A stretch of 64,000 bases of DNA from Candidatus Omnitrophota bacterium (GTDB lineage Bacteria; Omnitrophota; Gorgyraeia; Duberdicusellales; 4484-171). Shown here one piece after another: positions 40,007-64,000 of this stretch. Where the stretch lies: assembly GCA_028692655.1 (NCBI GenBank), contig JAQUWY010000002.1, positions 34,851 through 98,850 of the forward strand, given 5' to 3'. Within the stretch, counting starts at the first letter, position 1; each line of letters opens with the position of its first letter. Below the pieces are notes generated by a model that did no database searches, had not been told where the DNA came from, and was given only the letters and a program-made list of their open reading frames with translations. The position numbers and the translations under genes were made by a program.

Positions 40007-40015
40007 GATAGGCTT

Positions 40016-41977: not shown

Positions 41978-42023
41978 TAATTTTCCGAAACCAAATATTG
42001 CAAAAATATAAACCCATCAAAAT

Positions 42024-42905: not shown

Positions 42906-42938
42906 GGGTTACAGAAATAAAGATATAGGTATTGAATT

Positions 42939-47086: not shown

Positions 47087-47112
47087 ACTAAGACTAACAG
47101 GAGGTTGTAATT

Positions 47113-49191: not shown

Positions 49192-49267
49192 TTTTATCAG
49201 AGCCAAAGTGTTTATTCCAGTAAACTGACGGAAAGCGGTAGAGTAAGATAAAACAGCTTATAGTATT

Positions 49268-50338
49268 ATGAACATTTTAATTCTAACAACCCACCTTGAT
49301 CCCGGAGGAATTTCCCGTTATGTTATCAATCTGTCCAAGGCTCTCTGCCAGGCTGGCCATAAGGTGTGGGTAGCTTCCGGCGGAGGACAGTGGGAGAAAG
49401 AATTATCTTTTGAAGCGGTTAGTTTTATCCATATACCTATAAAGACGAAGTCGATTTTTAGCCCTAAAATATTTTTTTCCTTCATAAATTTGCGCCGTTT
49501 TTTAAAAGAAAGAAAAATTGATATAATTCATTGTAATACCCGCGTGACGCAGTTGTTGGGATTCTTGTTGTCCAAGCCTGCCGGTGTTCCTTATGTCAGC
49601 GCTTTTCATGGTTTCTATAGGCCGTCGGCAGAAAGAAAACTTTTTCAATTTTCGGGAGCGATGTCAATAGCCGTAAGCAATGCGGTAAGGGAACATATAA
49701 TCAAGGATCTATGGGTTAAACCGGAGAAAGTGCGTGTTGTCTATAACGGGATTGATTTCAAAGATTTCAATACTGCCGAGAGCCAGCGTAAAAGTTGGGG
49801 GTTTAAATCAACGGATTATTTGATAGGCGTTCTGGGCAGGATCTCACGGGAAAAAGGGCATTTCTTAGTTGTTAAAGCCTTGAGCCTTCTGGCGAGAAAA
49901 CACAGCAACATCTATTTGATTATTTCAGGCAGGGGTAAAATGGAAGCAAACCTAAAAGAGCTTATACGAAATAAGTCTTTGGAAGGCAGAGTATTTTTTA
50001 AAGAATCTTCCGCAAATCAGTTCTTAAGCAGTATGGACTCAATTGTCGTTGCGTCCGAAAAAGAAGGCTTTGGATATTCGATTATTGAAGCTTTTAAAAA
50101 GGGAGTGCCGGTTATAGGCTTTAACACGGGAGGAATATCTGAAATTATCCGTAATCGTAGTAACGGCTTATTGTTTTATAGCTACGATGCTCTCTCTTTA
50201 GCCGGAGCAATTGAGGAGATGATGCTTAAAAATAACTTGCGCAGCGTTCTTATTGGTAAGGCCAGGGAAGATGTAGAATTCTTTTCGGCTAAAAGGATGG
50301 CTTTTGATACGGAGAAAGTTTACAGGGAGATAATATAA
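49268..50338 (+). CDS. GT4 family glycosyltransferase
   Basis: 356 aa. EKEGFGYSIIEA (EX7E) and the GT-B fold. Confidence 0.82.
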   Translation: MNILILTTHLDPGGISRYVINLSKALCQAGHKVWVASGGGQWEKELSFEAVSFIHIPIKTKSIFSPKIFFSFINLRRFLKERKIDIIHCNTRVTQLLGFLLSKPAGVPYVSAFHGFYRPSAERKLFQFSGAMSIAVSNAVREHIIKDLWVKPEKVRVVYNGIDFKDFNTAESQRKSWGFKSTDYLIGVLGRISREKGHFLVVKALSLLARKHSNIYLIISGRGKMEANLKELIRNKSLEGRVFFKESSANQFLSSMDSIVVASEKEGFGYSIIEAFKKGVPVIGFNTGGISEIIRNRSNGLLFYSYDALSLAGAIEEMMLKNNLRSVLIGKAREDVEFFSAKRMAFDTEKVYREII

Positions 50339-51105
50339 TGAAAAGAATTTTTCTTTTGTGCGGCGTAATAATTTTAGCCGTTTTTATTTTGTTCGGGGCA
50401 TACTTAAATGCTAATTACGCAACGCCCATACTTGTTTACCACTCTCTTGATGGGAAGAGAGCCGAAAATTATGCCGCGGTGGACATAAAAGTATTCCGGC
50501 GTCAAATGGAGTTTATAAAGAGGAATTCTTATAAAGTTATAAGCCTTGATAGATATTGCCGGTTATTAAGATCGGGGGAAGCTGTGCCAAGAAGAAGCTT
50601 GATTATAACTTTTGATGACGGTTACAAAGACAACCTTGAAGGGATAAAGACTTTAAAGGAATCAGAGTTTCCGGCTACTATTTTTATTATTGTGGATAAA
50701 GTCGGTAAAGAAGGGTATCTTTCTGAGGAAGATATAAAATCTTTTTTGGGCAACTCCCAAATATCTATAGGCTCTCATACTTTAACGCATGCTTATTTGC
50801 CGGGGGCAACGGTTAGTGAGTTAAAAAAAGAAATTGCCTTTTCAAAAGAAATTCTTGAGAAAAATTTTCCTCAAACGGTTTCTGCTATTGCTTATCCTGT
50901 GGGTGGTTTTGACGAAAGGGTTCTTAGGGAGGCCGAAGCTGCAGGATATCTTTGTGCCTGTTCTACTAACCGTGGTTTTTCGAAAAGAATAAATCCTTTT
51001 GCTCTCAGGAGAATAAAGATAACCAACTCTGACGGTGAGTTTAGCCTTTGGGCAAAGTTAAGCGGATTTTATAATGTTTTCCGTAAGCTTAAGAATCCCT
51101 ATTAA
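50338..51105 (+). CDS. polysaccharide deacetylase (NodB-homology, CE4)
   Basis: 255 aa with an N-terminal TM segment. TFDDGY (Asp-Asp) and HTLTH metal/catalytic motifs. Confidence 0.8.
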   Translation: MKRIFLLCGVIILAVFILFGAYLNANYATPILVYHSLDGKRAENYAAVDIKVFRRQMEFIKRNSYKVISLDRYCRLLRSGEAVPRRSLIITFDDGYKDNLEGIKTLKESEFPATIFIIVDKVGKEGYLSEEDIKSFLGNSQISIGSHTLTHAYLPGATVSELKKEIAFSKEILEKNFPQTVSAIAYPVGGFDERVLREAEAAGYLCACSTNRGFSKRINPFALRRIKITNSDGEFSLWAKLSGFYNVFRKLKNPY

Positions 51106-51114
51106 CCAGGAAGT

Positions 51115-52173
51115 ATGGACAAAAAAGAATTAAACAGGTTCCCGCAAAATAAAAGCAAAGATAAACGCATCCTTGTCGTTGGTGTTAATTGGCTGGGGGA
51201 CAGCATAATGACTACCCCGGCATTTAAAGCCTTAAAGCATGTTTATCCTGAATCTTACATAGCAGTAATGACTGTTTCAAGGGTAAAGGAAGTTTTTGAA
51301 GATAATCCCTGTGTGGATGAAGTTATTATTTTTGATGAAAAGACATCACATAAAAGTATTAAAGAAAAAATAAAGTTCATTAAATTCTTAAAAGAGAAAA
51401 AGTTTCAAAAGGCATTCTTGATACACCGCTCTTTTACCAGGGCTCTTATCTGCCGGTTGGCGGCAATTCCTTCCCGGGCAGGCTATCAGAGGCTAAAGAA
51501 TTATTTTATTTTAACTGACAAGGTAGGCTTACCTAAAGAAGGGCTGCATCGTCAGGATTATTATTTAAATCTTTTCAAAAAGTCAGGGATAGCCGTTGAA
51601 AATTCTTTGCCGGAGTTTTTTATACCACCGGGAGTCCTTGATAGAGTTTCCCGGGCTTTAGAATTCTTAAAGAAAGACCATTCCTGCCTGGTGGGAGTTA
51701 ATCCCTCTGCTAATTGGGAACTTAAACGCTGGCCGCCTGAATATTTTTCTGTTCTTTGTGACCGTTTGGTTAAAGGCATGGGGGCGGGTGTTGTTTTTGT
51801 GGGTGGTGAATCTGATGAAAAGATTACAAGGGAGGTAATCGGAAGAATGCGTGAACCGGCCTACAGCCTTTGCGGCAAGACAACCCTTAAGGAGCTAGCC
51901 GCGGTAATAAAAAATATCAGTCTTTTCATTTCAAATGATTCCGGGCCGGCTCATTTGTCTGCTGCTTTAGGGGTGAGTACCCTGGCCTTGTTTGGGCCAA
52001 CCTCACCAAAGATAACTTCACCACGTGGGCGAAGAGTCAGGGTGATTAAGAATGATTGTGGTTGTAAGGTGCCCTGCTATGATTTAAATTGTAAGAATAA
52101 TATTTGTATGCAGAAGATAACTGTTGAGGAAGTGTATTTGGAAGCGAAGAATATGCTGGATAACCTAGTTTAA
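51115..52173 (+). CDS. GT9 ADP-heptose:LPS heptosyltransferase
   Basis: 352 aa. ILVVGVNWLGDSIMTTPAFKALK N-terminal signature, LFGPTSP, and a C-terminal CGC...C...C motif. Confidence 0.82.
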   Translation: MDKKELNRFPQNKSKDKRILVVGVNWLGDSIMTTPAFKALKHVYPESYIAVMTVSRVKEVFEDNPCVDEVIIFDEKTSHKSIKEKIKFIKFLKEKKFQKAFLIHRSFTRALICRLAAIPSRAGYQRLKNYFILTDKVGLPKEGLHRQDYYLNLFKKSGIAVENSLPEFFIPPGVLDRVSRALEFLKKDHSCLVGVNPSANWELKRWPPEYFSVLCDRLVKGMGAGVVFVGGESDEKITREVIGRMREPAYSLCGKTTLKELAAVIKNISLFISNDSGPAHLSAALGVSTLALFGPTSPKITSPRGRRVRVIKNDCGCKVPCYDLNCKNNICMQKITVEEVYLEAKNMLDNLV

Positions 52174-52180
52174 TCCGCTT

Positions 52181-53071
52181 ATGGCTAAAAATATATTAAT
52201 AAATTTTCCCACTAACTTAGGAGATACCATTATGGGCCTTCCGGTATTGGACCGTTTGAAGTCCAATTATCCGCAGGCAAAAATAACTGTTATTGCTTCC
52301 TCAGCTACAAAAGAGTTTCTCTTGGCAAACAATTTTATCGATGAGGTAGTTGTTTTTAATAAGCATTGGACTAATATTCAGAAAATACGTTTTGTTCTGG
52401 GGCTGAGAGGTAAATATGATTTGATGGCAGATTTAAAAAATTCTTTTCTGCCCGTTCTTCTGGGGATAAGCGATCATACACCTTTTTTCAGGAAATTTCC
52501 CCAGGATATGCACTTGAAAGAACGCTATTTGTCTCTGGTCGAGCCAATTGCTCCCGAGGCCCGGAATCTTCACAGCCAATTTATTATAACCGGCGAGAAT
52601 GAGTCTTGCTGGAGGAGAGAAAAAATAGCTAAAGCTGTATTTATTGCCGGTTCTTCTCGTAACCGCTTTAAGAGGTACCCTGCAGATTTATTATGCAAGG
52701 CCATTGAAGAGATAAAAAGCTTTGCCCCGGTAGCGATTTTGGGCCAGCGAGATGAGAGAGAATTTTATCATAGTCTTTTATCTATGCCGGGGGTTATTGA
52801 TTTAGTAGGCAAAACCAGCATGAGCGAAGTGTATTTTTTACTTAAAGAATACGGGCGTTTGCTTATCAGTGTTGACTCTGGGTTGTTGCATTTAGGAAGT
52901 TATCTTAACCTGCCTATTTTGGCACTATTTGGGCCGACTGACCCCTGCCGATACGGCCCCTGGTCTAAACAAAGCGTTGTTTTATGTCCACAAAGCCATA
53001 ATCTTACCGATATATCACCGCAGGAGATAGTTGCTTCAGCCAGGCGTTTATTATCCAATGAAGAAACCTAA
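52181..53071 (+). CDS. GT9 heptosyltransferase family protein (short)
   Basis: 296 aa. ILINFPTNLGDTIMGLPVL and LFGPTDP. Lacks the C-terminal Cys motif. Confidence 0.75.
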   Translation: MAKNILINFPTNLGDTIMGLPVLDRLKSNYPQAKITVIASSATKEFLLANNFIDEVVVFNKHWTNIQKIRFVLGLRGKYDLMADLKNSFLPVLLGISDHTPFFRKFPQDMHLKERYLSLVEPIAPEARNLHSQFIITGENESCWRREKIAKAVFIAGSSRNRFKRYPADLLCKAIEEIKSFAPVAILGQRDEREFYHSLLSMPGVIDLVGKTSMSEVYFLLKEYGRLLISVDSGLLHLGSYLNLPILALFGPTDPCRYGPWSKQSVVLCPQSHNLTDISPQEIVASARRLLSNEET

Positions 53072-54092
53072 ACGCATACTTATTTTACGAACTGATAGGC
53101 TGGGGGACGTTATTCTTTCAACTCCGGCTATCAGGAATTTACGTTTGGCGTATCCTGATGCTCACATTGCTTTTCTTTGCCGGCCATACACCCGTCAGGC
53201 AGTGGAAGGTAATCCTTATTTGGATGAAGTTATAGAGTATGATAAACACGGCAGGCATAAAAGCTTTTCTTCCACTGTAAGATTTTCTTTCTGGCTGAGG
53301 ACAAAAAAGTTTGACTGGGCCGTTGTTTTACACCCCACCAATCGTGCTAATATGATAGTTTTTTTAGCCGGGATTCCCCTGCGTGTTGGGTTCAACCGTA
53401 AAACGGGATATTTACTGAATAAAAGAATTCCTCATAAAAAACAACAAGGAAAAAAACATGAAGTTGAATATACTTTAGATATATTGCGCTATATAGGTGT
53501 GGAGGTAAAGGACAAAGTGCTTTATTTTCCGGTAATTGATAAAGCTCGCAAGGTTGTTGACAAACTTTTTAATTCCAAAGGTGTGGATTCCGGCAAAAAA
53601 CTTCTGGTTATCCATCCTTCAGCGTCTTGTCCGTCTAAGCGCTGGAGCCAGAATAATTTTTCCCGCCTTATAAGGGTTCTCAAGGCTGCTAATCACGATT
53701 TAATAATTGCCGTGATTACCTCCGAAGCTGAGAAAAAATTTGGCAAAAAATTAGTAGAGGAGAATGATGTTGTTGATCTAAGAGGTAAACTCAATCTTGC
53801 AGAATTAGGGGCATTGCTGGAGAGGGCAAGCCTTTTGATATCAAACGATACCGGGCCGGTCCATATAGCTGCCGCTCTAAAAATTCCGGTGATTTCCATA
53901 TTTGGCCGTAATGACCCGGGCCTTTCGCCGTTACGCTGGCGGCCTTTAGGAAAAAACTCTTATTATTTGCATAAAGATGTTGGTTGCAAGAAATGCCTTG
54001 CGCATAATTGCGATAAAAACTTTTTATGCCTGCAATCAATTGCAGTTGAAGAAGTTTTTGAACTGGCCATAAAGTTTCTTAAGTCAAACTAG
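53058..54092 (+). CDS. GT9 ADP-heptose:LPS heptosyltransferase
   Basis: Start refined to ATG 53058 (MKKPKRILILRTDRLGDV). The listed 53031 start gives a 41-nt overlap. IFGRNDP and a C-terminal CKKC...C...C motif. Confidence 0.8.
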   Translation: MKKPKRILILRTDRLGDVILSTPAIRNLRLAYPDAHIAFLCRPYTRQAVEGNPYLDEVIEYDKHGRHKSFSSTVRFSFWLRTKKFDWAVVLHPTNRANMIVFLAGIPLRVGFNRKTGYLLNKRIPHKKQQGKKHEVEYTLDILRYIGVEVKDKVLYFPVIDKARKVVDKLFNSKGVDSGKKLLVIHPSASCPSKRWSQNNFSRLIRVLKAANHDLIIAVITSEAEKKFGKKLVEENDVVDLRGKLNLAELGALLERASLLISNDTGPVHIAAALKIPVISIFGRNDPGLSPLRWRPLGKNSYYLHKDVGCKKCLAHNCDKNFLCLQSIAVEEVFELAIKFLKSN

Positions 54093-54127: not shown

Positions 54128-54155
54128 TTGATAAAAATTTTATATCTGATATCAT
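54128..54155 (+). promoter_or_regulatory. candidate promoter of rex (TTGATA-16-TATCAT) within an AT-rich repeat region
   Basis: TTGATA at 54128-54133 and TATCAT at 54150-54155. The surrounding direct repeat AAATTTTATAT occurs twice, with flanking TCAGA/TCTGA inverted ends. Only 7 nt from the putative GTG start, so the start codon or the promoter call may be off. Confidence 0.25.
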
Positions 54156-54162
54156 AGAGTTT

Positions 54163-54822
54163 GTGAAAAATAGAACGAATATTATTCTTTGCTCAAAAAA
54201 GGCAAAATGTTCGAGTGAAATTATAAAACGGCTCAGCCTTTACTTGCGTAATCTTAAGCGGCTTGAGAAGGAAGGGGTTGAGACAATTTCTTCAGATAAG
54301 ATTACTCAGTTTTTGAATGCCAGTTCAGTGCAGTTTAGAAAAGATCTTTCTTATTTCGGCGGTTTTGGAAAGCCTGGTGTGGGGTATAAAGTTAAGTCAT
54401 TGCTTAAAGAGCTTGAAAATATACTGGGAGTAAATCAGGAGTGGGATATTGCCTTGGTTGGTGCCGGCAGGCTAGGGGGAGCGCTGTCACGCTTTGAAGG
54501 GTTTTCCCGGTTTAATCTGCGGATTGTTTGTGTGTTTGATAACGATAAGAAAGTTATAGGGAAAAAAAGAGGCCAGCTTCTGATCCAGGACGTGAAAGAC
54601 TTAGTAAAAACGGTTGAAAGAAAAAAAATCAGAATTGCTATAATCGCGACCCCTATGGAAGCCGCACAGAGCGTATGTCACGAGCTGACTAAAGCCGGGG
54701 TTAAGGGGATATTAAACTTTTCTCCCTTAGTTCTCAAAGTTCCCAATGGCGTTTGCGTTTCCAATGTTGATATGGCCTGTGAGCTTGAAAGTCTTATTTA
54801 TTTCGCCAAAAGGAAAAGATAA
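54163..54822 (+). CDS. rex: redox-sensing transcriptional repressor Rex
   Basis: 219 aa (GTG start). N-terminal winged helix (IIKRLSLYLRNLKRL, similar to B. subtilis IPQATAKRLPLYYRFLKNL). FRKDLSYFGGFGKPGVGY, then the Rossmann NADH site LVGAGRLGG. Confidence 0.85.
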   Translation: MKNRTNIILCSKKAKCSSEIIKRLSLYLRNLKRLEKEGVETISSDKITQFLNASSVQFRKDLSYFGGFGKPGVGYKVKSLLKELENILGVNQEWDIALVGAGRLGGALSRFEGFSRFNLRIVCVFDNDKKVIGKKRGQLLIQDVKDLVKTVERKKIRIAIIATPMEAAQSVCHELTKAGVKGILNFSPLVLKVPNGVCVSNVDMACELESLIYFAKRKR

Positions 54823-54838: not shown

Positions 54839-55105
54839 ATGATTAAAAAGACTTTGCTCTTGGTTCTTGTAAATGTGCGCAAAGAGTCAGCAGCTAAGGT
54901 GCAAAAGATACTTACCGATTGGGGTTGTATTATAAAAACCCGCTTGGGAATACATGATGGGGTGCTTGATGATTGCACTAATTCAGGACTTATAATCCTT
55001 GAGCTTGTCGGAAGCGATAACCAGGCTCAGGAAATTAACCATAAGCTTAATCTCTTGGCTGGGGTTAAATCTGAGATCGTGGAGCTGCAGTTGCCTAAAG
55101 ATTAA
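54839..55105 (+). CDS. small ACT-like protein, putative [FeFe]-hydrogenase system regulator (TM1266-like)
   Basis: 88 aa with a GGGAGG RBS. Secondary-structure-like pattern of an ACT/NikR-C-terminal fold. Lies between rex and the hydrogenase structural genes. Family assignment is from memory of the TM1266-type family and is not verified. Confidence 0.35.
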   Translation: MIKKTLLLVLVNVRKESAAKVQKILTDWGCIIKTRLGIHDGVLDDCTNSGLIILELVGSDNQAQEINHKLNLLAGVKSEIVELQLPKD

Positions 55106-55134: not shown

Positions 55135-55674
55135 ATGAAATATAGCTTAACAAAACACAGGCCGGAGAAGATCAAAGACCGCTTAAGAATAGATAATATT
55201 ATTTCCCGCCATAAAGATACTCCCGGAGAATTATTGAATATCTTGGAAGAAACCCAGATTTTAAGTAAATATAACTATCTTTCTCCCGCTCAGTTGAAGT
55301 ACATAGCCGAAAAAACTTCTTACCCGCTTTCTGTGGTTTACAGCGTAACCACTTTTTATTCTTTTTTTAACCTTAAGCCTCAGGGGGAACATTGTATAAT
55401 TGTCTGCCGGGGTACTGCATGCCATACCAAAGGGTCGCGCCGGATACTGGATTATCTAGAAAGTGTGCTTGATTTTGGCGATGAAAAAATCAATGAAGGA
55501 GAGAAAGTTTTTTTAACTACAAAAGACAAAGTTATTACTATTAAGACTGTTGCTTGTTTTGGCCAGTGCGCTCTTGCGCCTGTGGTTGAAGTAGACGGAA
55601 TCATTCATAGCCGGATGACTGTAGAAAAGATGAAAAAAGTATTGTCAGCTTTAAAAAAGAAGGGCCTTAAATGA
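55135..55674 (+). CDS. NuoE-like [2Fe-2S] thioredoxin-fold subunit of multimeric [FeFe]-hydrogenase (HydC/HndA-like)
   Basis: 179 aa. CRGTACH...C...CFGQCALAP four-Cys pattern of the NuoE/HoxE family. Confidence 0.85.
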   Translation: MKYSLTKHRPEKIKDRLRIDNIISRHKDTPGELLNILEETQILSKYNYLSPAQLKYIAEKTSYPLSVVYSVTTFYSFFNLKPQGEHCIIVCRGTACHTKGSRRILDYLESVLDFGDEKINEGEKVFLTTKDKVITIKTVACFGQCALAPVVEVDGIIHSRMTVEKMKKVLSALKKKGLK

Positions 55675-58600
55675 AAGTGGTTGATATTAAAACCCTTGAA
55701 AAGGTAAAAGCAAAAGGGTTAAAAAAACTCTTTCCTTCTGTGGCTAGGATTACGGTAGGTTTAGGCACCTGCGGTGCCGGCAATAATGCGCAAGGGATTT
55801 ATGATTTTCTTGAAAGATATTTCTCAAAAAAGAAAAAAAGGATTTTTCTCACCAAAACAGGCTGCTTTGGATTTTGTGCTCAAGAACCTTTAGTTACTTT
55901 TAGGGTTCCGGGAAAGCCTCTGCTTATGTTCAGTAAGCTTAATGAGAAGTCCGCGAAACGCATAGCTGATAGCGTTTTACAGGGTGCACCTGATTCCGGT
56001 AATATTTTGTGTAAGATAGAAGAATGGGACCACTTAACTTCAAAATTAAATTATGGCAAAGGGTATCCTGCGATTCCTTCTTGGAAAGAGGTTCCTTTTT
56101 TTAAGAGGCAGAAAAAAATAGTTTTGAGAGACTGCGGGTTGATTAACCCCGATGATATAGAAGAATATTTCGGAGTAGGAGGCTACAGTGCACTTTTTAA
56201 AGTTTTGCATCAGTTTAGCCCTCAGGAGTGTTTGAATGAAGTAAAGGAATCTGGATTGCGTGGCCGGGGAGGAGCAGGCTTTCCGGTTTGGAAAAAATGG
56301 GAGATTCTTAAAAATAAAGTATCCGATAAAAAATATATTGTTTGCAATGCCGATGAAGGCGATCCCGGGGCATATATGAATAGGAACGAGTTGGAAGGTG
56401 ACCCTCATATGATTATAGAGGGTATGGCTATAGCCGGCTTTATTACCGGTTCTCATGAAGGAATCATATATTGCCGTGCAGAATATCCTCTGGCTGTAGA
56501 AAGGCTTCATAATGCCATTGCTCAGGCTAAAAGATACGGTGTTTTAGGCGCAAAGGTACTCGGTTCTGATTTTGATTTTAACCTTCATATTGTTGAGGGG
56601 GCAGGTGCTTTTGTCTGCGGAGAGGAGACCGCCCTCATTGCTTCTATTGAAGGAAAATCCGGACGCCCGAATGTCAGGCCGCCTTTTCCGGCAGAAAAAG
56701 GTATTTGGGGCTATCCTACCAATATAAATAATGTCGAGACCTGGGCTAATATCCCGGTGATTATAGCAAAAGGGGGAAAAGATTTTTCTCTTACGGGAGC
56801 AAAAGGAAACTCCGGCACTAAAGTGTTTTCTTTGGTGGGCAAGGTTAAGAATACCGGTCTGGTTGAGCTTCCTCTGGGCACGAGCCTTCAGACTCTTGTC
56901 TTTGATATCGGCGGAGGCACCGGCACGAATAAAAAAATAAAAGCAGTTCAGACCGGCGGGCCTTCGGGCGGATGCATACCGATGCGCCTCTTTAATACTC
57001 CCATTGATTATGAGTCTCTAACCAATTTAGGCACGATTATGGGTTCGGGAGGCGTAGTGGTTATGGACGAAGATAATTGTATGGTTGATGTTGCCAGATA
57101 TTTTACTGAATTCACTACTGCGGAATCTTGTGGTAAGTGTACTCCCTGCCGAGAGGGTTTAAGCCAGATTTTAAAGATGCTGCAGGATATTGCTGCCGGC
57201 AGGGCTTCGATTGATATTCTGGATAAGGCAAGCGAATTAGGCAGTATAATAAAAGATTCGGCTCTTTGCGGATTAGGCCAGACCGGGCCCAATCCACTTT
57301 TAACCACCCTGAAATATTTTCGGCAGGAATACAAACAGCATATTAAAGATAATTATTGTGATGCGGGAGTCTGTCAGGAAATGTTTTTAGCCCCTTGTGA
57401 AAATAGCTGTCCCTTACATATGAATATACCGGCTTATCTTTCGATGTTTGAAGAAGGAAGGGTAAAAGATGCTTTCGAGTCTATAATCAGGGATAATCCT
57501 TTGCCGGCTTCTATAGGAAGGATTTGCCATTTTCATTGTAAGCTTCGTTGTCGCAGAGAAGATATAGATTCTCCCGTTGCTCAAGGAGAAGTCCACCGCT
57601 ATATAGCGGATGTTCTTCGCGGAACAAAAGAAGAAAAAGAAGTGCTTGATAAGATTTGTAAAGAAAAACTTCCTTTAACCGGGAAAAAAATAGTCATTAT
57701 CGGTGCCGGCCCGGCAGGGCTTACCGCGGCATATTATCTCATACGCTTAGGGCATAAAGTAACTGTTTATGACCGGGCTCATGAGGCCGGCGGGATACTG
57801 CGATGGGGAATTCCGGCATACAGGCTTCCCCGTGATATTTTGAAGCACGAGATAGGTTTTTTGGGTAAATTAGGGGTGAAATTTATTTTTAATAAAAAGA
57901 TTTCTCCTCGCGATATAAAAAGCTTGCAAGAAAAATCTCAGGCGTTAATTATTGCCGCTGGCGCTTACAAAGAAATTTCTCTGAATATACCCGGAGAAGG
58001 CTCAAGCGGCGTATTTTCCGGAAGTAGTTTTCTGGAGAGCATTGCCGGCGGCAGGAAACCGGCAATTGGGAAAAAGGTGGTTATTGTAGGCGGAGGAAAT
58101 GTAGCCATAGATGCTGCCAGGAGTGCTATGCGCCTGGGGGCAAGAGTTACTATAGTTTATCGCCGGCAGGAACCAGATATGCCGGCTAATCACGCTGAAA
58201 TTCTTGAGGCTTATAAAGAAGGCGTAAAGATGTTGTTTATGAGAGCCCCCAAGAGAATAATAGGCTCAGATCCGGACAATAAAGTCAAAGCTATAGAATT
58301 GTCAGTAATGAAACCAGGCCCGTGTGATTCCTCCGGAAGGAAAAAACCTCTGGATACGGGTGAAACTGAAACTTTAGCTTGCGATACAATACTCTTTGCT
58401 ATCGGAGAACGTGTTGATGCTGACTTTGCTGCCGCCTGCGGGCTTGAACTTACGGCTTACAAAACAATAACTGCTGATGAATTCACTTTAGAAACTAATA
58501 TAAAAAAGGTTTATGCGGGAGGAGATATAGTTACCGGCCCGGGGACTGCGGTTGAAGCCATGGCTCAGGGAAAGCGTATGGCAAGAGCTATCGATAAGAA

Positions 58601-58826
58601 TCTGGCTTCTTGTGATAGGTTTGGGCTTCTATATAAAACGTTTGATTACAGTAATCAGGCTCCTTTTAAACCGGCGCCTGCTGCGCGAAGCAAGATAAAA
58701 GTTATGGATTTAAATAAACGTTTAAAAGGTTTCAAAGAGGTTTCTTTTGGCTTAAGTCCTGTTCAGGCAAAAGTAGAGTGCCAACGGTGTTTGCGCTGTG
58801 ATATCAAGGAAATAAGCGGCATCTAA
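55671..58826 (+). CDS. three-module flavoprotein: HndB-like [2Fe-2S] domain + NuoF-like (FMN/NADH, [4Fe-4S]) + GltD-like (FAD/NAD(P)H, 2x[4Fe-4S]) fusion
   Basis: 1051 aa. N-terminal GTCGAG...GCFGFC Trx-like domain. NuoF core [33 protein letters not shown]. From ~nt 57355 a glutamate-synthase-small-subunit-like domain: YCDAGVCQE...C..C Fe-S region, IIGAGPAGLTAAYYL (FAD), VVIVGGGNVAIDAARSA (NAD(P)H). Confidence 0.85.
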   Translation: MKVVDIKTLEKVKAKGLKKLFPSVARITVGLGTCGAGNNAQGIYDFLERYFSKKKKRIFLTKTGCFGFCAQEPLVTFRVPGKPLLMFSKLNEKSAKRIADSVLQGAPDSGNILCKIEEWDHLTSKLNYGKGYPAIPSWKEVPFFKRQKKIVLRDCGLINPDDIEEYFGVGGYSALFKVLHQFSPQECLNEVKESGLRGRGGAGFPVWKKWEILKNKVSDKKYIVCNADEGDPGAYMNRNELEGDPHMIIEGMAIAGFITGSHEGIIYCRAEYPLAVERLHNAIAQAKRYGVLGAKVLGSDFDFNLHIVEGAGAFVCGEETALIASIEGKSGRPNVRPPFPAEKGIWGYPTNINNVETWANIPVIIAKGGKDFSLTGAKGNSGTKVFSLVGKVKNTGLVELPLGTSLQTLVFDIGGGTGTNKKIKAVQTGGPSGGCIPMRLFNTPIDYESLTNLGTIMGSGGVVVMDEDNCMVDVARYFTEFTTAESCGKCTPCREGLSQILKMLQDIAAGRASIDILDKASELGSIIKDSALCGLGQTGPNPLLTTLKYFRQEYKQHIKDNYCDAGVCQEMFLAPCENSCPLHMNIPAYLSMFEEGRVKDAFESIIRDNPLPASIGRICHFHCKLRCRREDIDSPVAQGEVHRYIADVLRGTKEEKEVLDKICKEKLPLTGKKIVIIGAGPAGLTAAYYLIRLGHKVTVYDRAHEAGGILRWGIPAYRLPRDILKHEIGFLGKLGVKFIFNKKISPRDIKSLQEKSQALIIAAGAYKEISLNIPGEGSSGVFSGSSFLESIAGGRKPAIGKKVVIVGGGNVAIDAARSAMRLGARVTIVYRRQEPDMPANHAEILEAYKEGVKMLFMRAPKRIIGSDPDNKVKAIELSVMKPGPCDSSGRKKPLDTGETETLACDTILFAIGERVDADFAAACGLELTAYKTITADEFTLETNIKKVYAGGDIVTGPGTAVEAMAQGKRMARAIDKNLASCDRFGLLYKTFDYSNQAPFKPAPAARSKIKVMDLNKRLKGFKEVSFGLSPVQAKVECQRCLRCDIKEISGI

Positions 58827-58844
58827 ATGTATAGAGGAAATTGT

Positions 58845-60626
58845 ATGGGTAAAAAGACATGCAACGTAAAGATAAACGGAACTAATTGTCAAGCTGAAGA
58901 AGGGATTAATCTTGTAGAAGCTTGCTTGCAGCAGGGAATTATAATTCCGACACTTTGCTACCTCAAGGATCTTAATGAAAGCGGAGCTTGTTCAGTTTGT
59001 TTGGTTGAAGTCAAAGGTGCTAAGACTCTGCTTCGGGCTTGTGTTACTAAGGTTAGAGACGGAATGGAGATATATACTGATACCGAGCGTATCCGGCGGG
59101 CCCGTAAAGTTGTTGTAGAACTTATTCTGGCCAATCATCCCAAAGATTGCCTGGGGTGTGAAAAAAACCAGAATTGTGATCTGCAAAGAATAGCTTATGA
59201 GTTAGGTATTGAAAATATACGTTATCCAAAAACGCGCCAGAAAGATTTCTCTATAGACAACTCATCTCCTTCAATAATAAGAGACCCTAACAAGTGTATT
59301 TTATGTGGAAGATGTATAGAGGTGTGCAGTAAAATTCAAGAAGTTAACGCTATTGATTTTATCAAGCGTGGGCATGCAATGCAGGTTTCGACATTTTTTG
59401 ATGGCGGTTTAGGGAATTCAGAATGTACTAATTGCGGCCAATGTGTGTTGGTCTGCCCTACGGGGGCTTTAGCCGAGAACAACTCTATAGGCGAGGTCTG
59501 GAGAGTTTTAGACGATAAGGAGCAGATAGTAATAGTTCAGACTGCGCCGGCGATAAGAGCGGCAATCGGCGAAGCTTTTGGTTTTAATACAGGGGTTCCG
59601 ACTACCGGAAAATTAGCCGCTTCCCTGCGGCGCTTGGGGTTCTCTAAGATCTTTGATACGCAATTCGCTGCTGACCTCACTATTATCGAAGAAGGTTCGG
59701 AGTTTCTCACAAGATTAAAAAATAATGATAAAATACCGACAATTACGTCTTGTTCTCCCGGTTGGATAAAATTTGGCGAAACTTTTTTCCCGGGAATATT
59801 GGATAATATTTCAACCTGTAAATCACCGCAGCAGATGTTCGGTGCAATAGCTAAGACCTATTATGCTCAAAAGATGAACATTGATCCCAGGAAAATTAAA
59901 ATAATTTCTGTTATGCCCTGCACCGCGAAGAAATTCGAAGCTTTACGCCCGGAAATAAACAGTGCATTTTCTTTCTGGAAAGATAAGCTTGCTCTTAGTA
60001 AAAAAGAATACTTTCCCGATGTTGACTATGTGCTTACGACTCGGGAATTAATCAGGATGATAAAAGAGGCGGGCATTGATTATGCAAATCTTGCCGATGA
60101 AGGATTTGATGACCCTCTGGGGGTTTCTACCGGTGCAGCTACTATATTTGGTGCCAGCGGAGGGGTGATGGAAGCCGCTCTTCGTTCAGCATATTTTTAT
60201 TTAACCGGCACAGAACTTAAGGATATTGAACTGAATGCCGTAAGAGGGCTCTCCGGAATCAAAGAAGCCAGTTTAGAAATAGCCGGAAAAAAGATAAAAG
60301 TTGCGGTTGCCCACGGCCTGGGTAATGCCCGCAAATTAATGCAGCAGGTTGCAAGAGGCGAGAGCCCGTATCATTTTATAGAAATAATGGCTTGTCCCGG
60401 AGGCTGCATCGGCGGAGGCGGCCAACCTTTACCGGTCAATGATGAGATCAGGAAGCTTCGCATAAAAGCGCTTTACCAAGAGGATAGAAGCCTTGCCTAT
60501 CGCCGTTCTCATCAGAACCCGGCTGTTATAAAGCTCTATTCCGAATTTCTTAAAAAACCAAATGGGCACCTTTCTCATAAGCTTCTTCATACGCACTATC
60601 ATAAGCGCCAGCCGGTTAAAATATAA
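58845..60626 (+). CDS. hydA: [FeFe]-hydrogenase catalytic subunit HydA (M3/CpI architecture) with variant L1 motif TSCSPGW
   Basis: Start preferred at ATG 58845 (RBS AGAGGA 7 nt upstream). The alternative is ATG 58827, directly after the upstream stop codon. N-terminal [2Fe-2S] domain, His-ligated cluster HPKDCLGCEKNQNC, and 2x[4Fe-4S] (CILCGRCIEVC; CTNCGQCVLVCP). H-cluster motifs L2 MPCTAKKFE and L3 EIMACPGGCIGGGGQP are present. L1 reads TSCSPGW (nt 59745-59765). Confidence 0.9.
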   Translation: MGKKTCNVKINGTNCQAEEGINLVEACLQQGIIIPTLCYLKDLNESGACSVCLVEVKGAKTLLRACVTKVRDGMEIYTDTERIRRARKVVVELILANHPKDCLGCEKNQNCDLQRIAYELGIENIRYPKTRQKDFSIDNSSPSIIRDPNKCILCGRCIEVCSKIQEVNAIDFIKRGHAMQVSTFFDGGLGNSECTNCGQCVLVCPTGALAENNSIGEVWRVLDDKEQIVIVQTAPAIRAAIGEAFGFNTGVPTTGKLAASLRRLGFSKIFDTQFAADLTIIEEGSEFLTRLKNNDKIPTITSCSPGWIKFGETFFPGILDNISTCKSPQQMFGAIAKTYYAQKMNIDPRKIKIISVMPCTAKKFEALRPEINSAFSFWKDKLALSKKEYFPDVDYVLTTRELIRMIKEAGIDYANLADEGFDDPLGVSTGAATIFGASGGVMEAALRSAYFYLTGTELKDIELNAVRGLSGIKEASLEIAGKKIKVAVAHGLGNARKLMQQVARGESPYHFIEIMACPGGCIGGGGQPLPVNDEIRKLRIKALYQEDRSLAYRRSHQNPAVIKLYSEFLKKPNGHLSHKLLHTHYHKRQPVKI

Positions 60627-60684: not shown

Positions 60685-60712
60685 TTGACAGGCTCCTTGC
60701 CGGTGATATAAT
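60685..60712 (+). promoter_or_regulatory. sigma70-like promoter of the downstream hnd-type hydrogenase operon
   Basis: TTGACA (60685-60690), a 16-nt spacer, then TGaTATAAT extended -10 (60704-60712). Confidence 0.5.
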
Positions 60713-60728
60713 CGCCTATCACCCAAGA

Positions 60729-60746
60729 TTGTGACAAAATTCACAA
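60729..60746 (+). promoter_or_regulatory. Rex operator
   Basis: TTGTGACAAAATTCACAA is a perfect inverted repeat matching the Rex consensus TTGTGA-N6-TCACAA. It lies ~17 nt downstream of the -10 and 29 nt upstream of the NuoE-like ATG. Confidence 0.65.
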
Positions 60747-60774: not shown

Positions 60775-61260
60775 ATGGAAGCCAGCAATAATATCAGAAG
60801 TGATAAAGAAATTAAAGACCTGGTTGAGAAATGGAAAGGTGTGGAAGGCAATCTTATTATGATCCTGCATACCATACAGGATGAGTATGGTTATATTCCC
60901 CGCCACGTATCTTTTGAGCTCCAGAAATTGCTTGATATACCTTTAGCCAGGATTTATGAAGTAATAACTTTTTATAATTACTTCAAACTGGAACCGCCGG
61001 GAAAGCATAAGATATCTCTTTGTATGGGTACAGCTTGTTATCTTAAGGGCGGGGTTGACATATTAGGAGAGCTAAAAAGCATACTGCATATAGAACCCGG
61101 CCAGACTACAAAAGACGGGCTATTTACTATTGAACTGGTTAGATGCCTTGGCTGCTGCGGCTTATCACCGGTAATGATGATTGACGGAAAGATTTACGGA
61201 AAACTGTCTCAGGAAAAAATTCCCGAGATTCTAACGCATTATATAGAAGCCGAAAGTTAA
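60775..61260 (+). CDS. hndA: NuoE-like [2Fe-2S] subunit (HndA-like)
   Basis: 161 aa. CMGTACY...C..C...LGCCGLSP NuoE-family Cys pattern. Confidence 0.85.
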   Translation: MEASNNIRSDKEIKDLVEKWKGVEGNLIMILHTIQDEYGYIPRHVSFELQKLLDIPLARIYEVITFYNYFKLEPPGKHKISLCMGTACYLKGGVDILGELKSILHIEPGQTTKDGLFTIELVRCLGCCGLSPVMMIDGKIYGKLSQEKIPEILTHYIEAES

Positions 61261-61281
61261 ATTTTAGAATAAGGCGGGTAA

Positions 61282-61623
61282 ATGGATAAGCTAACTAAAG
61301 ATAATTTTCAAAAAGCTAAAAACGATTCAGTCCAAAAGAAAACTAATTGGATAAAAGTGGGCATGAGCACCTGTGGTATAGCAGCCGGGGCCAGAGAGGT
61401 TTACGATACTTTAACCGAGGAAGTTAAACGCCGTAACCTCAACATTGATATTCTTAAGACTGGGTGTTTAGGCATGTGCTATATTGAACCTCTGGTAGAA
61501 GTTTGTATAGAGGGAGTACCGCATGTTGTCTATGGTAATGTCGATACAAAGGCTGCGTTGGGAATTGTTGATAAACATATTTGCGGCAAGAGAGTTATGA
61601 ATGACCATTTGGTAATAAAGTAA
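61282..61623 (+). CDS. hndB: small thioredoxin-like [2Fe-2S] ferredoxin subunit (HndB-like)
   Basis: 113 aa. STCG...GCLGMC...C Cys pattern. Homologous to the N-terminal domain that is fused to NuoF in the first operon. Confidence 0.7.
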
Positions 61624-61631
61624 TAAAGGCT

Positions 61632-63374
61632 ATGTATAGAAAAACAATATTTATAAAGGATACCGATTCCCAAGGGCTTGACCGCACCAAGGAATTCTAT
61701 AATAAGTTTTTGGAAAACCTGCGCTCGAGAAATCTTCAAAATGACATTCAGGTTGCCAGGGCAGCTGATATCGGTATATATAACCAGGGAATTGTCTTGA
61801 GGGTTTATGGCGAGGACACAATATATGTTCAGCTTAAAGAAACGGATATTGATAATATTATTTCTCTCACCATCGAAAAAAATGAAATTATATCTTCCTT
61901 GCAATATAAGAAAAAAGATAAGCAATTAAGAAGAGTGTTGAGAAACTGCGGGGTTATAAATCCTGACTGTATTGAGGATTATCTTGCTAATGGAGGCTAT
62001 CAAGGGCTTTATAAAGTGTTAACTTCGTTGAAGCCGGAGGAAGTTATTAAAGAGTTAAAAATAAGCGGCTTGCGCGGGCGCGGCGGCGGCGGCTTTCCTA
62101 CCTGGATGAAGTGGGATTTTGCGCTTAAGACAGAATCCGATCAGAAATATATTATTTGTAACGGAGACGAAGGCGATCCCGGGGCTTATATGGACCGTAG
62201 CGTTTTAGAAGGAGACCCTCATTCGGTAATAGAAGGGATGATCATTGCCGGTTATACTATAGGCGCTAGCAAGGGTTATTTTTATATCCGCGCGGAGTAT
62301 CCCCTGGCGATAGAAAGAATTCAAAATGCTATTGACCAGGCCTATTCCAAAGGATTGATAGGCGAAAAGATATTAAACAGCGGTTTTAATTTTGATTTAT
62401 CCATACGCCTTGGTGCCGGAGCCTTTGTTTGCGGTGAGGAAACCGCTCTTATTGCTTCTATTGAGGGCAAACGCGGTACGCCCTTGCCTAGGCCGCCCTA
62501 TCCTTCGGTAAAAGGCTTATGGTCTAAGCCTACAGTTATTAATAATGTAGAAACTTTAGCTAATGTTGCTTATATATTTATTAGGGGAGCAAAAGAATTT
62601 GCTAAACTGGGAACTGAAACTTCCAAAGGAACAAAAGTATTCGCTTTAACCGGAAAAGTAAAAAACTCCGGGTTGATAGAAGTCCCCATGGGAACTACGT
62701 TAAGGGAGATAGTCTTTGATGTTGGCGGAGGAGTTTTAGATAATAAAAATATAAAGGCAGTTCAGACCGGAGGGCCCTCCGGAGGAGTTATCCCTGCCCA
62801 GTATCTGGATACGCCTGTAGATTATGAAAATCTTAGTAAGCTTGGTTCGATAATGGGTTCAGGCGGCATGATTGTTATGGATGAAACTGATTGTATGGTC
62901 GATATAGCAAAGTTTTATTTAGGTTTCTGCGTTGAAGAATCTTGCGGTAAATGCGCACCTTGCAGGATCGGCGGCAGTCAGATGCTTGATATATTAACCC
63001 GCATATCCAAGGGCCAGGCTCAAAACCATGATTTGGAGACGCTAAGCAGGATATCGTTTGCCATGCAAAAAGCTTCTCTTTGCGGTTTAGGCCAAACTGC
63101 CCCCAATCCGGTTGTTTCTACTTTGAAGCATTTTCTTCCGGAATACAAAGAACATACCGAGAATAAACGTTGTCCGGCGGGAAAATGTTTGGATCTTTTA
63201 AGCTATAAGATTATTGACGAAAAATGTAAACGCTGCGGAGCCTGCGTACGGATTTGTCCGGTTAGTGCTATAAGTGGAAACCGCGAACATGGTTACAGTA
63301 TAGACACTCAGAAATGTACAAAATGCGGCCAGTGCATTAGTGTTTGCAAATTTAAAGCGATATCTAAGGAGTGA
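61632..63374 (+). CDS. hndC: NuoF-like NAD(P)H-binding flavoprotein with C-terminal 2x[4Fe-4S] ferredoxin domain (HndC-like)
   Basis: 580 aa. [35 protein letters not shown]-terminal [12 protein letters not shown] / [11 protein letters not shown]. The N-terminal ~110 aa contains no cysteine. Confidence 0.88.
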
Positions 63375-63375
63375 C

Positions 63376-64000
63376 ATGGTAAAAGCGAAAATAAATGGCA
63401 TAGATGTCCAGGTGGCCAGAGGCACCTCTATTCTTACTGCTGCTAAAAAAGTTAATATAAAAATTCCTTCGCTTTGCAAACATCCTGATTTGGACGCTAC
63501 TGCGGCTTGTGGTATATGTATTGTAAAAGTTAAGGGCAGCAAAAAAATGCTGCGTTCGTGCTGCACGCCCTTGGAAGAGGGTATGGATATCATAACCCAC
63601 GATGACGAACTTCAGGATATAAGGCGTACAGTTATTGAGTTAATCTTATCCAACCATCCCGATGAATGCCTTGAATGCGGCCGGAATAATAACTGCGAAC
63701 TTCAAAAATTAGCCGCTGATTTTGGTATTCGCCAACAGCCGTTTAAAGAATTTTTGAGAGACCTTCCTAAAGATGACTCAACAAAAACTATTGTTATTGA
63801 TCCACGTAAATGTATTCAGTGCGGCAGATGTGTGCAGGTTTGCCAGGATATGCAGGATGTTTGGGCCCTTTCTTTCTTAGAGAGAGGGATCGAAACCCGG
63901 ATATCGCCGGCCGGAGACATAAATCTGTCTGAAAGTCCATGCGTGCGTTGCGGCCAGTGTTCAGCTCATTGTCCTACCGGGGCTATCGTTGAATACGATG
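63376..64000 (+). CDS. hndD: [FeFe]-hydrogenase catalytic subunit N-terminal part (HndD-like), 3'-truncated by window end
   Basis: Frame open to the window end. [2Fe-2S] domain (CKHPDLDATAACGICIV...C), HPDECLECGRNNNC, CIQCGRCVQVC, CVRCGQCSAHCPTGA. The H-cluster domain lies beyond the window. Confidence 0.8.
   Translation, partial: MVKAKINGIDVQVARGTSILTAAKKVNIKIPSLCKHPDLDATAACGICIVKVKGSKKMLRSCCTPLEEGMDIITHDDELQDIRRTVIELILSNHPDECLECGRNNNCELQKLAADFGIRQQPFKEFLRDLPKDDSTKTIVIDPRKCIQCGRCVQVCQDMQDVWALSFLERGIETRISPAGDINLSESPCVRCGQCSAHCPTGAIVEYD

Follow-up and report, generated by a model that had tools for sequence, protein, structure and literature searches.

The 64,000-nucleotide stretch of Candidatus Omnitrophota DNA analyzed here (hereinafter the window) encodes the catalytic subunit of an [FeFe]-hydrogenase, HydA, whose L1 motif reads TSCSPGW, with a serine at the position where the canonical TSCCPxW supplies the fourth cysteine ligand of the H-cluster [4Fe-4S] subcluster ([4Fe-4S]H). 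This raises the question of whether the serine is real and, if so, what it does to the enzyme: the first-pass annotation had proposed that it would change the ligation or the redox potential of the cluster, while also considering a sequencing error, a shifted register, and a natural variant of a sensory or low-activity class. We favor, at a probability of roughly 80%, a genuine inherited Cys-to-Ser swap at the fourth-ligand position of L1 in an ordinary member of a Ser-type clade, which, by analogy with a solved relative, is most likely active with a serine oxygen as ligand. Serine at this position is a common natural variant that has already been described, and the exact protein is already public (P0001; 100% identity) under the routine name [quoted passage not shown].

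The motif lies in frame within the sole long open reading frame at this site, with the codons that had been read for it (Table 1). The NCBI entry for the identical protein places the start at 58845, six codons downstream of the ORF start at 58827. From its N-terminus, HydA consists of a [2Fe-2S] domain, a [4Fe-4S] domain of the NuoG type, two ferredoxin-type [4Fe-4S] sites and the H-domain, and it ends in a small-subunit-like domain. A phmmer search with HydA as query recovered HydA1 of T. kivui (PDB: 8a6t; E=8e-190) as the best-scoring solved homolog, followed by the clearly diverged A. woodii HydA1 (7q4v; E=1e-182), which scores below the all-Cys T. kivui protein in the same search, and by C. 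pasteurianum CpI (E=1e-142), our reference for residue numbering. About 100 residues on each side of L1 align to all three without gaps, such that TSCSPGW is superimposed on TSCCPGW of CpI (residues 297–303), TSCCPSW of T. kivui and TSCSPGW of A. woodii. A difference in register is thereby dismissed, and the alignment to CpI that the first-pass annotation had called for puts Cys309 on C299 and Ser310 on C300, in agreement with its assignment of the first position to the proton relay and the second to the [4Fe-4S]H ligand, here serine. The relay role of the first L1 cysteine is known from CpI and CrHydA1, and the roles of the other proton-path residues from CpI, a monomeric, ferredoxin-dependent enzyme. 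The relay cysteine is present in 100% of both the Ser-type and the Cys-type sequences. L2 and L3 are intact, as had been noted, and conform to the patterns MPCxxKxxE and ExMxCxxGCxxGxGQP with the three cluster cysteines Cys365, Cys523 and Cys527 in place; the proton path and pocket residues (C309, E289, S329, E292, R296, K368 and M521) are likewise all present. T. kivui HydA1 and CpI share these fold-defining motifs and the proton path, but unlike the window HydA they carry TSCCPxW and an all-Cys [4Fe-4S]H.

Table 1. Features of the rex-hydCBA region of the window; positions are counted from the first nucleotide of the window, and residue equivalences are to CpI unless stated otherwise.
Feature	Position	Strand	Description
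Promoter	54128-54155		Predicted sigma-70-like promoter by rex, 10/12 match
rex	54163-54822	+	Redox-sensing transcriptional repressor; NCBIfam NF003995, 255 bits (cut-off 126)
Small protein gene	54839-55105	+	Encodes an 88-aa member of the CPF_0552 family; lies between rex and hydC; NF052672, 96 bits (cut-off 85)
hydC	55135-55674	+	NuoE-like thioredoxin-type [2Fe-2S] subunit, 179 aa; Pfam 2Fe-2S_thioredx, E=6e-37
hydB	55671-58826	+	1051 aa; BfuB-like flavoprotein of the NuoF type, fused to an FAD/NAD(P)H module resembling GltD/NfnB
hydA	58827-60626	+	Group A [FeFe]-hydrogenase catalytic subunit, 599 aa
IIEEGSEFLTRL	59682-59717	+	Glu289, Glu292 and Arg296 (E279, E282 and R286), proton-transfer path
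L1 (P1) motif TSCSPGW	59745-59765	+	Residues 307-313; codons ACG TCT TGT TCT CCC GGT TGG
Cys309	59751-59753	+	TGT; C299 (CrHydA1 C169), proton-relay cysteine by alignment
Ser310	59754-59756	+	TCT; C300 (T. kivui C299, A. woodii S301), fourth [4Fe-4S]H ligand position
Ser329	59811-59813	+	S319, proton-transfer path
L2 motif MPCTAKKFE	59913-59939	+	Cys365, ligand; Lys368 (K358)
L3 motif EIMACPGGCIGGGGQP	60381-60428	+	Cys523, ligand; Cys527, bridges to [2Fe] subcluster; Met521 (M497)

Profile searches assign HydA to the catalytic group A: it scores above the cut-offs of the NCBIfam models for group A6 (NF040763; 860 bits against 765) and group A (TIGR02512; 516 against 406), and fails that for group B1 (TIGR04105; 164 against 450). 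The Pfam Fe_hyd_lg_C domain was recovered with 321 bits against a cut-off of 22 (E=8e-96), and Fe_hyd_SSU with E=1e-23; since L1 occupies the homologous site of the former domain, its chance occurrence is of no concern. The protein departs from the strict TSCCPxW at position 4, and has the relay cysteine and the broader [TS]SC[CS]PxW at the site corresponding to CpI 297–303. The strict form is not family-defining, because A. woodii HydA1, an active enzyme of known structure, deviates from it identically. Sensory hydrogenases of group C (HydS-like) combine a PAS or other signaling domain with an altered proton path that lacks the relay cysteine. HydA shows neither hallmark: its Pfam matches are to hydrogenase and iron-sulfur domains only, with no PAS or other signaling domain among them, and both the relay cysteine and the proton path are retained. 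The suggestion of a sensory or low-activity class thus found no backing, and low activity is further disfavored by the L1 motif shared with the active A. woodii enzyme.

Could the serine be an artifact, i.e., a one-base TGT-to-TCT error in a truly canonical TSCCPGW enzyme? The two codons do differ by a single base, and the genome itself is metagenome-assembled. Nonetheless, a separate Logan assembly of the run SRR22315505 yielded a 3.8-kb contig whose product is identical to HydA and whose codons at the site are again TGT TCT, and the survey of homologs that had been proposed as a check recovered TSCSP[GA]W in 118 of the 120 closest 90%-identity protein clusters and in 74 of the 80 nearest genomes at species level, which span many phyla. 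The Ser-type relatives include proteins at 86%, 78% and 72% identity to HydA. Moreover, the site is encoded among homologs by all six serine codons (AGC 22, TCT 17, AGT 16, TCG 11, TCC 8, TCA 6), AGY codons included, a pattern that reflects long-term retention of the serine. Taken together, these sequence comparisons effectively refute an error.

The rarity that the first-pass annotation had implied does not hold. In a broader sample, sequences with the Cys-Ser pair make up 23 of 124 (18.5%) L1-bearing representatives at 50% identity, and Kertess et al. (2017; PMC5855289) had already put the share of serine here at ~20% of the putative [FeFe]-hydrogenases that they analyzed. In a neighbor-joining tree of 89 H-domains, a rough distance-based tree free of support values, a single clade, composed mostly of Ser-type sequences, takes in both the window HydA and A. 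woodii HydA1 and leaves T. kivui outside. Serine and cysteine have toggled repeatedly within this clade. Over diverse representatives, parsimony on a distance tree rooted at its midpoint gives at least 15 changes between the two, a figure that this latter tree is too noisy to make trustworthy. The residues flanking L1 co-vary with the serine, with isoleucine rather than phenylalanine before the motif and glycine in P-G-W. We place hydA among the NuoF-linked group A [FeFe]-hydrogenases (HydABC/Bfu-type), in a large clade whose normal state at this site is serine.

What such a serine may do is best seen in A. woodii HydA1, the catalytic subunit of HydABC(D) (7q4v, 7q4w, 8a5e; PMC10021017) and the sole solved homolog with the same motif. 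It has the same domain order (583 aa as against 599 aa), the identical ITSCSPGWIKF with serine at the ligand position, a cysteine at the position of CpI A321, intact L2 and L3 motifs, and NuoF- and NuoE-type partner genes; it comes from the Bacillota, and the window protein from the Omnitrophota. Katsyv et al. (2023; PMC10021017) reported that Ser301 replaces a cysteine ligand of the H-cluster [4Fe-4S] in A. woodii and called it the serine ligand of this cluster, and the residues aligned here at this position are the ones that the paper itself names. The ligation comes from a cryo-EM model, as opposed to spectroscopic data on the subcluster; the FTIR signatures and activities of the enzyme were similar to those of the all-Cys T. 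kivui enzyme. The altered ligation that had been proposed from the motif is thus upheld in this homolog and, by analogy, probably applies to the window protein. On this model, the O-gamma of Ser310 would stand in for the missing thiolate, Cys365, Cys523 and Cys527 would bind the cluster as usual, Cys309 would still relay protons to the azadithiolate bridge, and HydA would be normally active as a hydrogenase.

An engineered counterpart behaves differently. The C115S variant of C. reinhardtii HydA1 (that paper's numbering) carries this very substitution at the corresponding ligand site of L1, an equivalence confirmed by the mention of the neighboring Cys114. Its [4Fe-4S] site was poorly occupied, with most of the cluster lost, and the protein was inactive (Kertess et al., 2017; PMC5855289), whereas the natural Ser-type enzyme of A. 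woodii is active. Tolerance of the serine therefore depends on context, and the natural Ser clade differs from the algal variant right beside L1 in the flanking isoleucine and glycine noted above.

The same mutagenesis study offers a way in which the iron might keep four thiolates: when the ligand cysteine of CrHydA1 was changed to alanine, the neighboring cysteine was suggested as a stand-in (Kertess et al., 2017; PMC5855289). By extension, Ser310 could sit off the iron, with the fourth thiolate coming from Cys309 or from the spare Cys331, which corresponds to CpI A321 and is the sole non-canonical cysteine of this H-domain. Cys331 has a counterpart in A. woodii HydA1 and is enriched in Ser-type sequences (18/22, 82%) relative to Cys-type ones (54/99, 55%); yet by the same count more than half of the all-Cys enzymes also possess it, and some Ser-type sequences lack it and have their spare cysteine elsewhere (505, 372 or 317). 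For each alignment column, the frequency of cysteine in 26 Ser-type H-domains was set against that in 103 Cys-type ones, and every cysteine of the Ser-type sequences was then listed; no other column was found to hold a cysteine specifically in Ser-type sequences. That each of these has at least one spare cysteine is expected from the base rate, as just 7 of 99 Cys-type sequences are without any. We also considered a pattern in which Cys505 is always present where Cys331 is absent, and rejected it upon finding the spare cysteine at 372 or 317 in the genome set. Hence, at the level of sequence, no alternative cysteine consistently substitutes for the lost ligand, and Cys331 is enriched but not required. 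Binding by Cys309 would, for its part, cost the enzyme its proton relay, yet the activity and FTIR states of the A. woodii enzyme are normal and its authors describe Ser301 as the ligand (PMC10021017). We accordingly regard a ligand swap as quite unlikely.

It is also conceivable that this HydA is a degenerate, sensory or low-activity paralog, with a canonical neighboring hydrogenase carrying out catalysis. A second hydA indeed starts at 63376, and its closest homologs have the canonical T[TS]CCP[SA]W; further, TSCSPGW was listed as a deviation from the functional motif (Di Rienzi et al., 2013; PMC3787301), and the equivalent substitution inactivates CrHydA1 (PMC5855289). The listed deviation concerns Melainabacteria ACD20, whose trimeric confurcating-type hydrogenases have the same TSCSPGW; however, those copies have also lost an L3 cysteine, which is replaced by isoleucine (PMC3787301), whereas L2 and L3 are intact in the window HydA. 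To this may be added its passing of the group A models free of a signaling domain, its conserved relay cysteine and proton path, the retention of serine across many phyla, and the catalytic role of A. woodii HydA1, with an identical motif, in an active bifurcating hydrogenase (PMC10021017). A degenerate paralog is hence very improbable. A literature search for TSCSP found the Melainabacteria paper only (PMC3787301), and the hydrogenase reviews and surveys that we examined do not discuss it. As regards the second HydA, a search with its 208-aa N-terminal fragment gave matches of at most 364 aa. We rejected a selenocysteine or a truncation at an apparently shared in-frame stop near L1, as the C-termini of the matches are scattered and several read through an intact T[TS]CCP[SA]W; most of these short matches look like contig-end or frameshift fragments.

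Returning to the Ser-type hydA, its neighborhood is that of a bifurcating-type operon, as the first-pass annotation had recognized: hydC, hydB and hydA are contiguous on one strand, with the NuoE-like and NuoF-like genes immediately upstream of hydA, as in HydABC systems. The small CPF_0552-family protein encoded between rex and hydC has no Pfam match. A search allowing up to three mismatches found no Rex operator upstream of the first operon, its single match being at 60729-60746. The genes at 38915-54092, which are DNA-metabolism and LPS genes, include no maturase genes.

HydB departs from the canonical arrangement. Its Pfam domains are Complex1_51K, NADH_4Fe-4S, Fer4_20 and Pyr_redox_2; residues 27–571 match BfuB subunits of known structure (7t2r_B, 9n5u_B, 8oh5_B, 7q4v_B), and residues 573–1045 match 9bov_A/8oh5_C, NfnA (9n5u_A) and NfnI (5jca_L). 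The chains 9bov_A and 8oh5_C are themselves large subunits partnering the NuoF-type chains 9bov_B and 8oh5_B. A. woodii HydB (599 aa) ends in a C-terminal region with two [4Fe-4S] clusters, which was proposed to form the ferredoxin branch (Katsyv et al., 2023; PMC10021017). In the window HydB this region is absent, and the GltD-like Fer4_20 and Pyr_redox_2 module follows the NuoF core instead (at about residue 571). Roughly between a fifth and a quarter of the related loci have such a fusion of HydB to a GltD-like module. The complex may work like HydABC, but we do not class it as a canonical HydABC.

The linkage of a NuoF- or GltD-like gene to hydA, seen in 76 of 80 related loci, together with the repeated toggling between serine and cysteine and the co-varying L1 flanks, leads us to keep open a further reading, namely that serine ligation is not neutral but a functional adaptation of NuoF-linked multimeric hydrogenases that could tune the potential of the H-cluster to a flavin-based chain. 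On the same reading, the HydB partner of this Ser-type HydA would bring in an NADP(H) site through its GltD-like module, where a ferredoxin-branch domain is usual, and the complex could act as an H2-linked enzyme of NAD(H) and NADP(H), akin to the Stn and Nfn-Bfu transhydrogenases. We put this forward as a speculative and, on balance, unlikely proposition.

As a finding, then, the serine variant is minor, being a documented and common natural state with a solved, active example, and the HydB fusion is the more unusual and less explored feature of the locus. Why such a Cys-to-Ser swap should abolish cluster binding in the alga yet do no harm in A. woodii is a question already known, and not a discovery made here. 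Ser-type enzymes provide natural material for asking which surrounding residues make an oxygen ligand of the H-cluster tolerable, and whether potential or catalytic bias shifts with it.

The bases at 59745-59765 read ACG TCT TGT TCT CCC GGT TGG, and in the frame of hydA, the sole long ORF at the site, they translate to T307-S308-C309-S310-P311-G312-W313, confirming the TSCSPGW version of the L1 H-cluster motif reported in the first-pass annotation; the L2 motif MPCTAKKFE and the L3 motif EIMACPGGCIGGGGQP are also present as described there (see table). The sequence marks the encoded HydA as a complete [FeFe]-hydrogenase of group A, with matches to the Pfam families Fe_hyd_lg_C (E 8e-96), Fe_hyd_SSU, Fer2_4, NADH-G_4Fe-4S_3, and ferredoxin-type domains, to the NCBIfam model NF040763 ('NADH-dependent [FeFe] hydrogenase, group A6'; 860 bits, cut-off 765), and to TIGR02512 ('group A'; 516 bits, cut-off 406). 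An identical protein is already recorded from a Candidatus Omnitrophica metagenome-assembled genome.

A phmmer search with HydA against all PDB chains recovered the HydA1 proteins of Thermoanaerobacter kivui (8a6t, E 8e-190) and, as the second-best solved structure, Acetobacterium woodii (7q4v, E 1e-182), along with Clostridium pasteurianum CpI (E about 1e-142), and the alignments to all three are gap-free for ~100 residues on each side of L1. C309 aligns with CpI C299, the proton-relay cysteine established for CpI and Chlamydomonas reinhardtii HydA1 (CrHydA1), and S310 aligns with CpI C300, T. kivui C299, and A. woodii S301, that is, with the ligand position of the [4Fe-4S] subcluster. Because these positions were counted in gap-free alignments, the earlier assignment of the first Cys as relay and of the second position, here Ser, as ligand holds, and the shifted register offered as an alternative does not. 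The proton path is retained (E289, E292, R296, S329, and C309, equivalent to CpI E279, E282, R286, S319, and C299), as are K368 and M521 (CpI K358 and M497). The A. woodii enzyme, which is both solved and active, shares with HydA the identical stretch ITSCSPGWIKF; the residue numbers of Katsyv et al. (2023; PMC10021017) agree with those counted here. These authors describe Ser301 as the residue that replaces a Cys ligand of the [4Fe-4S] cluster, report activities and FTIR signatures similar to those of the all-Cys T. kivui enzyme, and so saw no effect of the serine ligand in the FTIR comparison.

The serine is conserved over long evolutionary spans and is not the sequencing error that had been suggested. 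The proposed survey of homologs shows a widespread variant: in the 90%-identity clusters nearest to HydA, 120 in number and sharing 59-100% identity with it, L1 reads TSCSPGW in 118, SSCSPGW in one, and TSCCPGW in one. With one genome taken per species, Ser stands at the site in 74 of the 80 hydA loci nearest to this one, and those 74 belong to Omnitrophota, Sumerlaeota, Elusimicrobiota, Spirochaetota, Caldisericota, Verrucomicrobiota, Bacteroidota, Bacillota, Chloroflexota (Dehalococcoidia), deltaproteobacterial groups (Smithella and Syntrophorhabdales, for example), and further lineages. All six Ser codons are used at the site (AGC 22, TCT 17, AGT 16, TCG 11, TCC 8, TCA 6), and a separate Logan assembly of run SRR22315505 yields an identical protein with the codons TGT TCT. 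When 50%-identity clusters were sampled through their 150 best representatives, L1 was of the C-S type in 23 and of the C-C type in 101 (18.5% Ser-type), in agreement with the published figure of about 20% for putative hydrogenases with Ser at this position among those analysed (Winkler, Esselborn and Happe, 2013, cited in Kertess et al., 2017; PMC5855289). TSCSPGW had also been noted in the confurcating-type hydrogenases of Melainabacteria (Di Rienzi et al., 2013; PMC3787301). Ser at the ligand position is thus a natural variant that is common and already on record, and one enzyme carrying it is both solved and active.

In a neighbour-joining tree of 89 H-domains rooted on CpI, which is distance-based, rough, and carries no support values, HydA is an ordinary member of a large, mostly Ser-type clade that includes A. 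woodii HydA1, with T. kivui HydA1 outside it. Individual sub-clades use either TCN (Omnitrophota, Elusimicrobiota, Spirochaetota, and similar groups) or AGY (most Bacillota and Smithella) at the codon homologous to 59754-59756, and five rare Cys-type (TGY) members are nested among Ser-type neighbours. Since a single base change converts TGY into either TCY or AGY, passage from one family of Ser codons to the other through Cys is plausible, and the rough distance tree accordingly suggests repeated Ser/Cys interchange at the ligand position. Ile rather than Phe precedes L1 (Ile306, 59742-59744) in 15/26 Ser-type versus 13/103 Cys-type sequences, and the Gly of P-G-W (Gly312, 59760-59762) occurs in 24/26 versus 39/103; these covariation counts include shared ancestry, and the two residues are possible second-sphere adjustments permitting an oxygen ligand.

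In the reading we favour, one iron of [4Fe-4S]H would be bound by the oxygen of Ser310, Cys309 would stay the proton relay, and HydA would turn over H2 normally. A minor rival is that another cysteine replaces Ser310 as ligand. The H-domain holds just five cysteines (309, 331, 365, 523, and 527), leaving Cys331, aligned with CpI A321, as the sole spare, and 18/22 Ser-type sequences indeed have this residue, against 54/99 of the Cys-type. However, comparison of 26 Ser-type with 103 Cys-type H-domains found no alignment column with Cys specifically in the former, and several Ser-type proteins lack Cys331, their spare cysteines lying at differing positions. Every Ser-type sequence has at least one spare Cys, which is unremarkable given that only 7/99 Cys-type sequences have none. 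For these reasons we keep the ligand swap as a minor alternative to oxygen ligation by Ser310.

The gene hydA closes a run of genes on one strand, rex-CPF_0552-hydC-hydB-hydA, which the CPF_0552-family protein may serve in a regulatory or accessory role. Over residues 27-571, HydB matches the NuoF-type BfuB subunits known from bifurcating enzymes (7t2r_B, 9n5u_B, 8oh5_B, and A. woodii HydB, 7q4v_B), and over residues 573-1045 it matches the GltD/NfnB-like part of 9bov_A and 8oh5_C (large subunits paired with the NuoF-type chains 9bov_B and 8oh5_B), NfnA of Nfn-Bfu (9n5u_A), and NfnI (5jca_L). Whereas the C-terminal region of HydB in solved enzymes holds two [4Fe-4S] clusters (PMC10021017), here a GltD/NfnB-like FAD/NAD(P)H module takes its place. 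With this one canonical feature absent, we do not file the complex as a canonical bifurcating HydABC; from its sequence, it probably works like an NAD(P)-linked multimeric hydrogenase, and the fusion could give an enzyme that is linked to H2 and has a site for NAD(H) as well as one for NADP(H). We found no characterised example of a HydB-GltD fusion. In 17/80 related species loci a Ser-type hydA is immediately preceded by such a fusion, which a contig end cuts short in six more; other Ser-type loci have a HydB of ~600 or ~420 aa, and the Ser is therefore not tied to the fusion.

Features of the hydrogenase loci in the window
Feature	Position	Strand	Remarks
rex	54163-54822	+	heads first operon
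CPF_0552-family gene	54839-55105	+	88 aa; NCBIfam NF052672; no Pfam domain; between rex and hydC
hydC	55135-55674	+	NuoE-like
hydB	55671-58826	+	1051-aa fusion
hydA	58827-60626	+	599 aa
L2 of HydA	59913-59939		MPCTAKKFE
L3 of HydA	60381-60428		EIMACPGGCIGGGGQP
Predicted sigma-70-type promoter	60685-60712	+	12/12 perfect; TTGACA, 16 nt, TATAAT; TG before second hexamer
Rex-operator-like palindrome	60729-60746	+	TTGTGACAAAATTCACAA; one mismatch from consensus
NuoE-like gene, second set	60775-61260	+
Small [2Fe-2S] protein gene, second set	61282-61623	+
NuoF-like gene, second set	61632-63374	+	C-terminal di-cluster domain
Second hydA	from 63376	+	cut by window end (64000); L1 beyond it

A second, canonical-looking hydrogenase set (60775-64000) lies directly downstream, with the predicted promoter and then the Rex-like box between hydA and this operon; a search allowing up to 3 mismatches detected no Rex-like box ahead of the first, rex-headed operon. 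As T[TS]CCP[SA]W is the form of L1 in the nearest homologs of the second hydA (identity 72-79%), the genome probably encodes Ser-type and Cys-type hydrogenases side by side. Five related genomes differ in having two Ser-type hydA in tandem clusters, about 3.5 kb apart in three and about 5.5 kb in two. Directly upstream of the first operon is a lipid A and LPS-core gene run (42939-54092, +), preceded by DprA, topoisomerase I, and XerC; it includes Kdo transferase, LpxK, a lauroyl acyltransferase-like gene, GT4 glycosyltransferases, a deacetylase, and four heptosyltransferase-like ORFs (47113-49191, C-terminal half; 51115-52173; 52181-53071; 53031-54092), of which the family-model scan covered the first two.

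Kertess et al. (2017; PMC5855289) mutated every ligand cysteine of CrHydA1, including the L1 ligand labelled C115, which their mention of the neighbouring Cys114 confirms to be the second Cys of TSCCP; to their surprise, C115S lost the cluster and all activity. The serine in HydA is of low interest in itself, and the questions it raises are known ones: why a natural background tolerates Ser where the algal enzyme does not, and whether Ser tunes the cluster. The part of this locus more deserving of attention is the fused HydB-GltD subunit.
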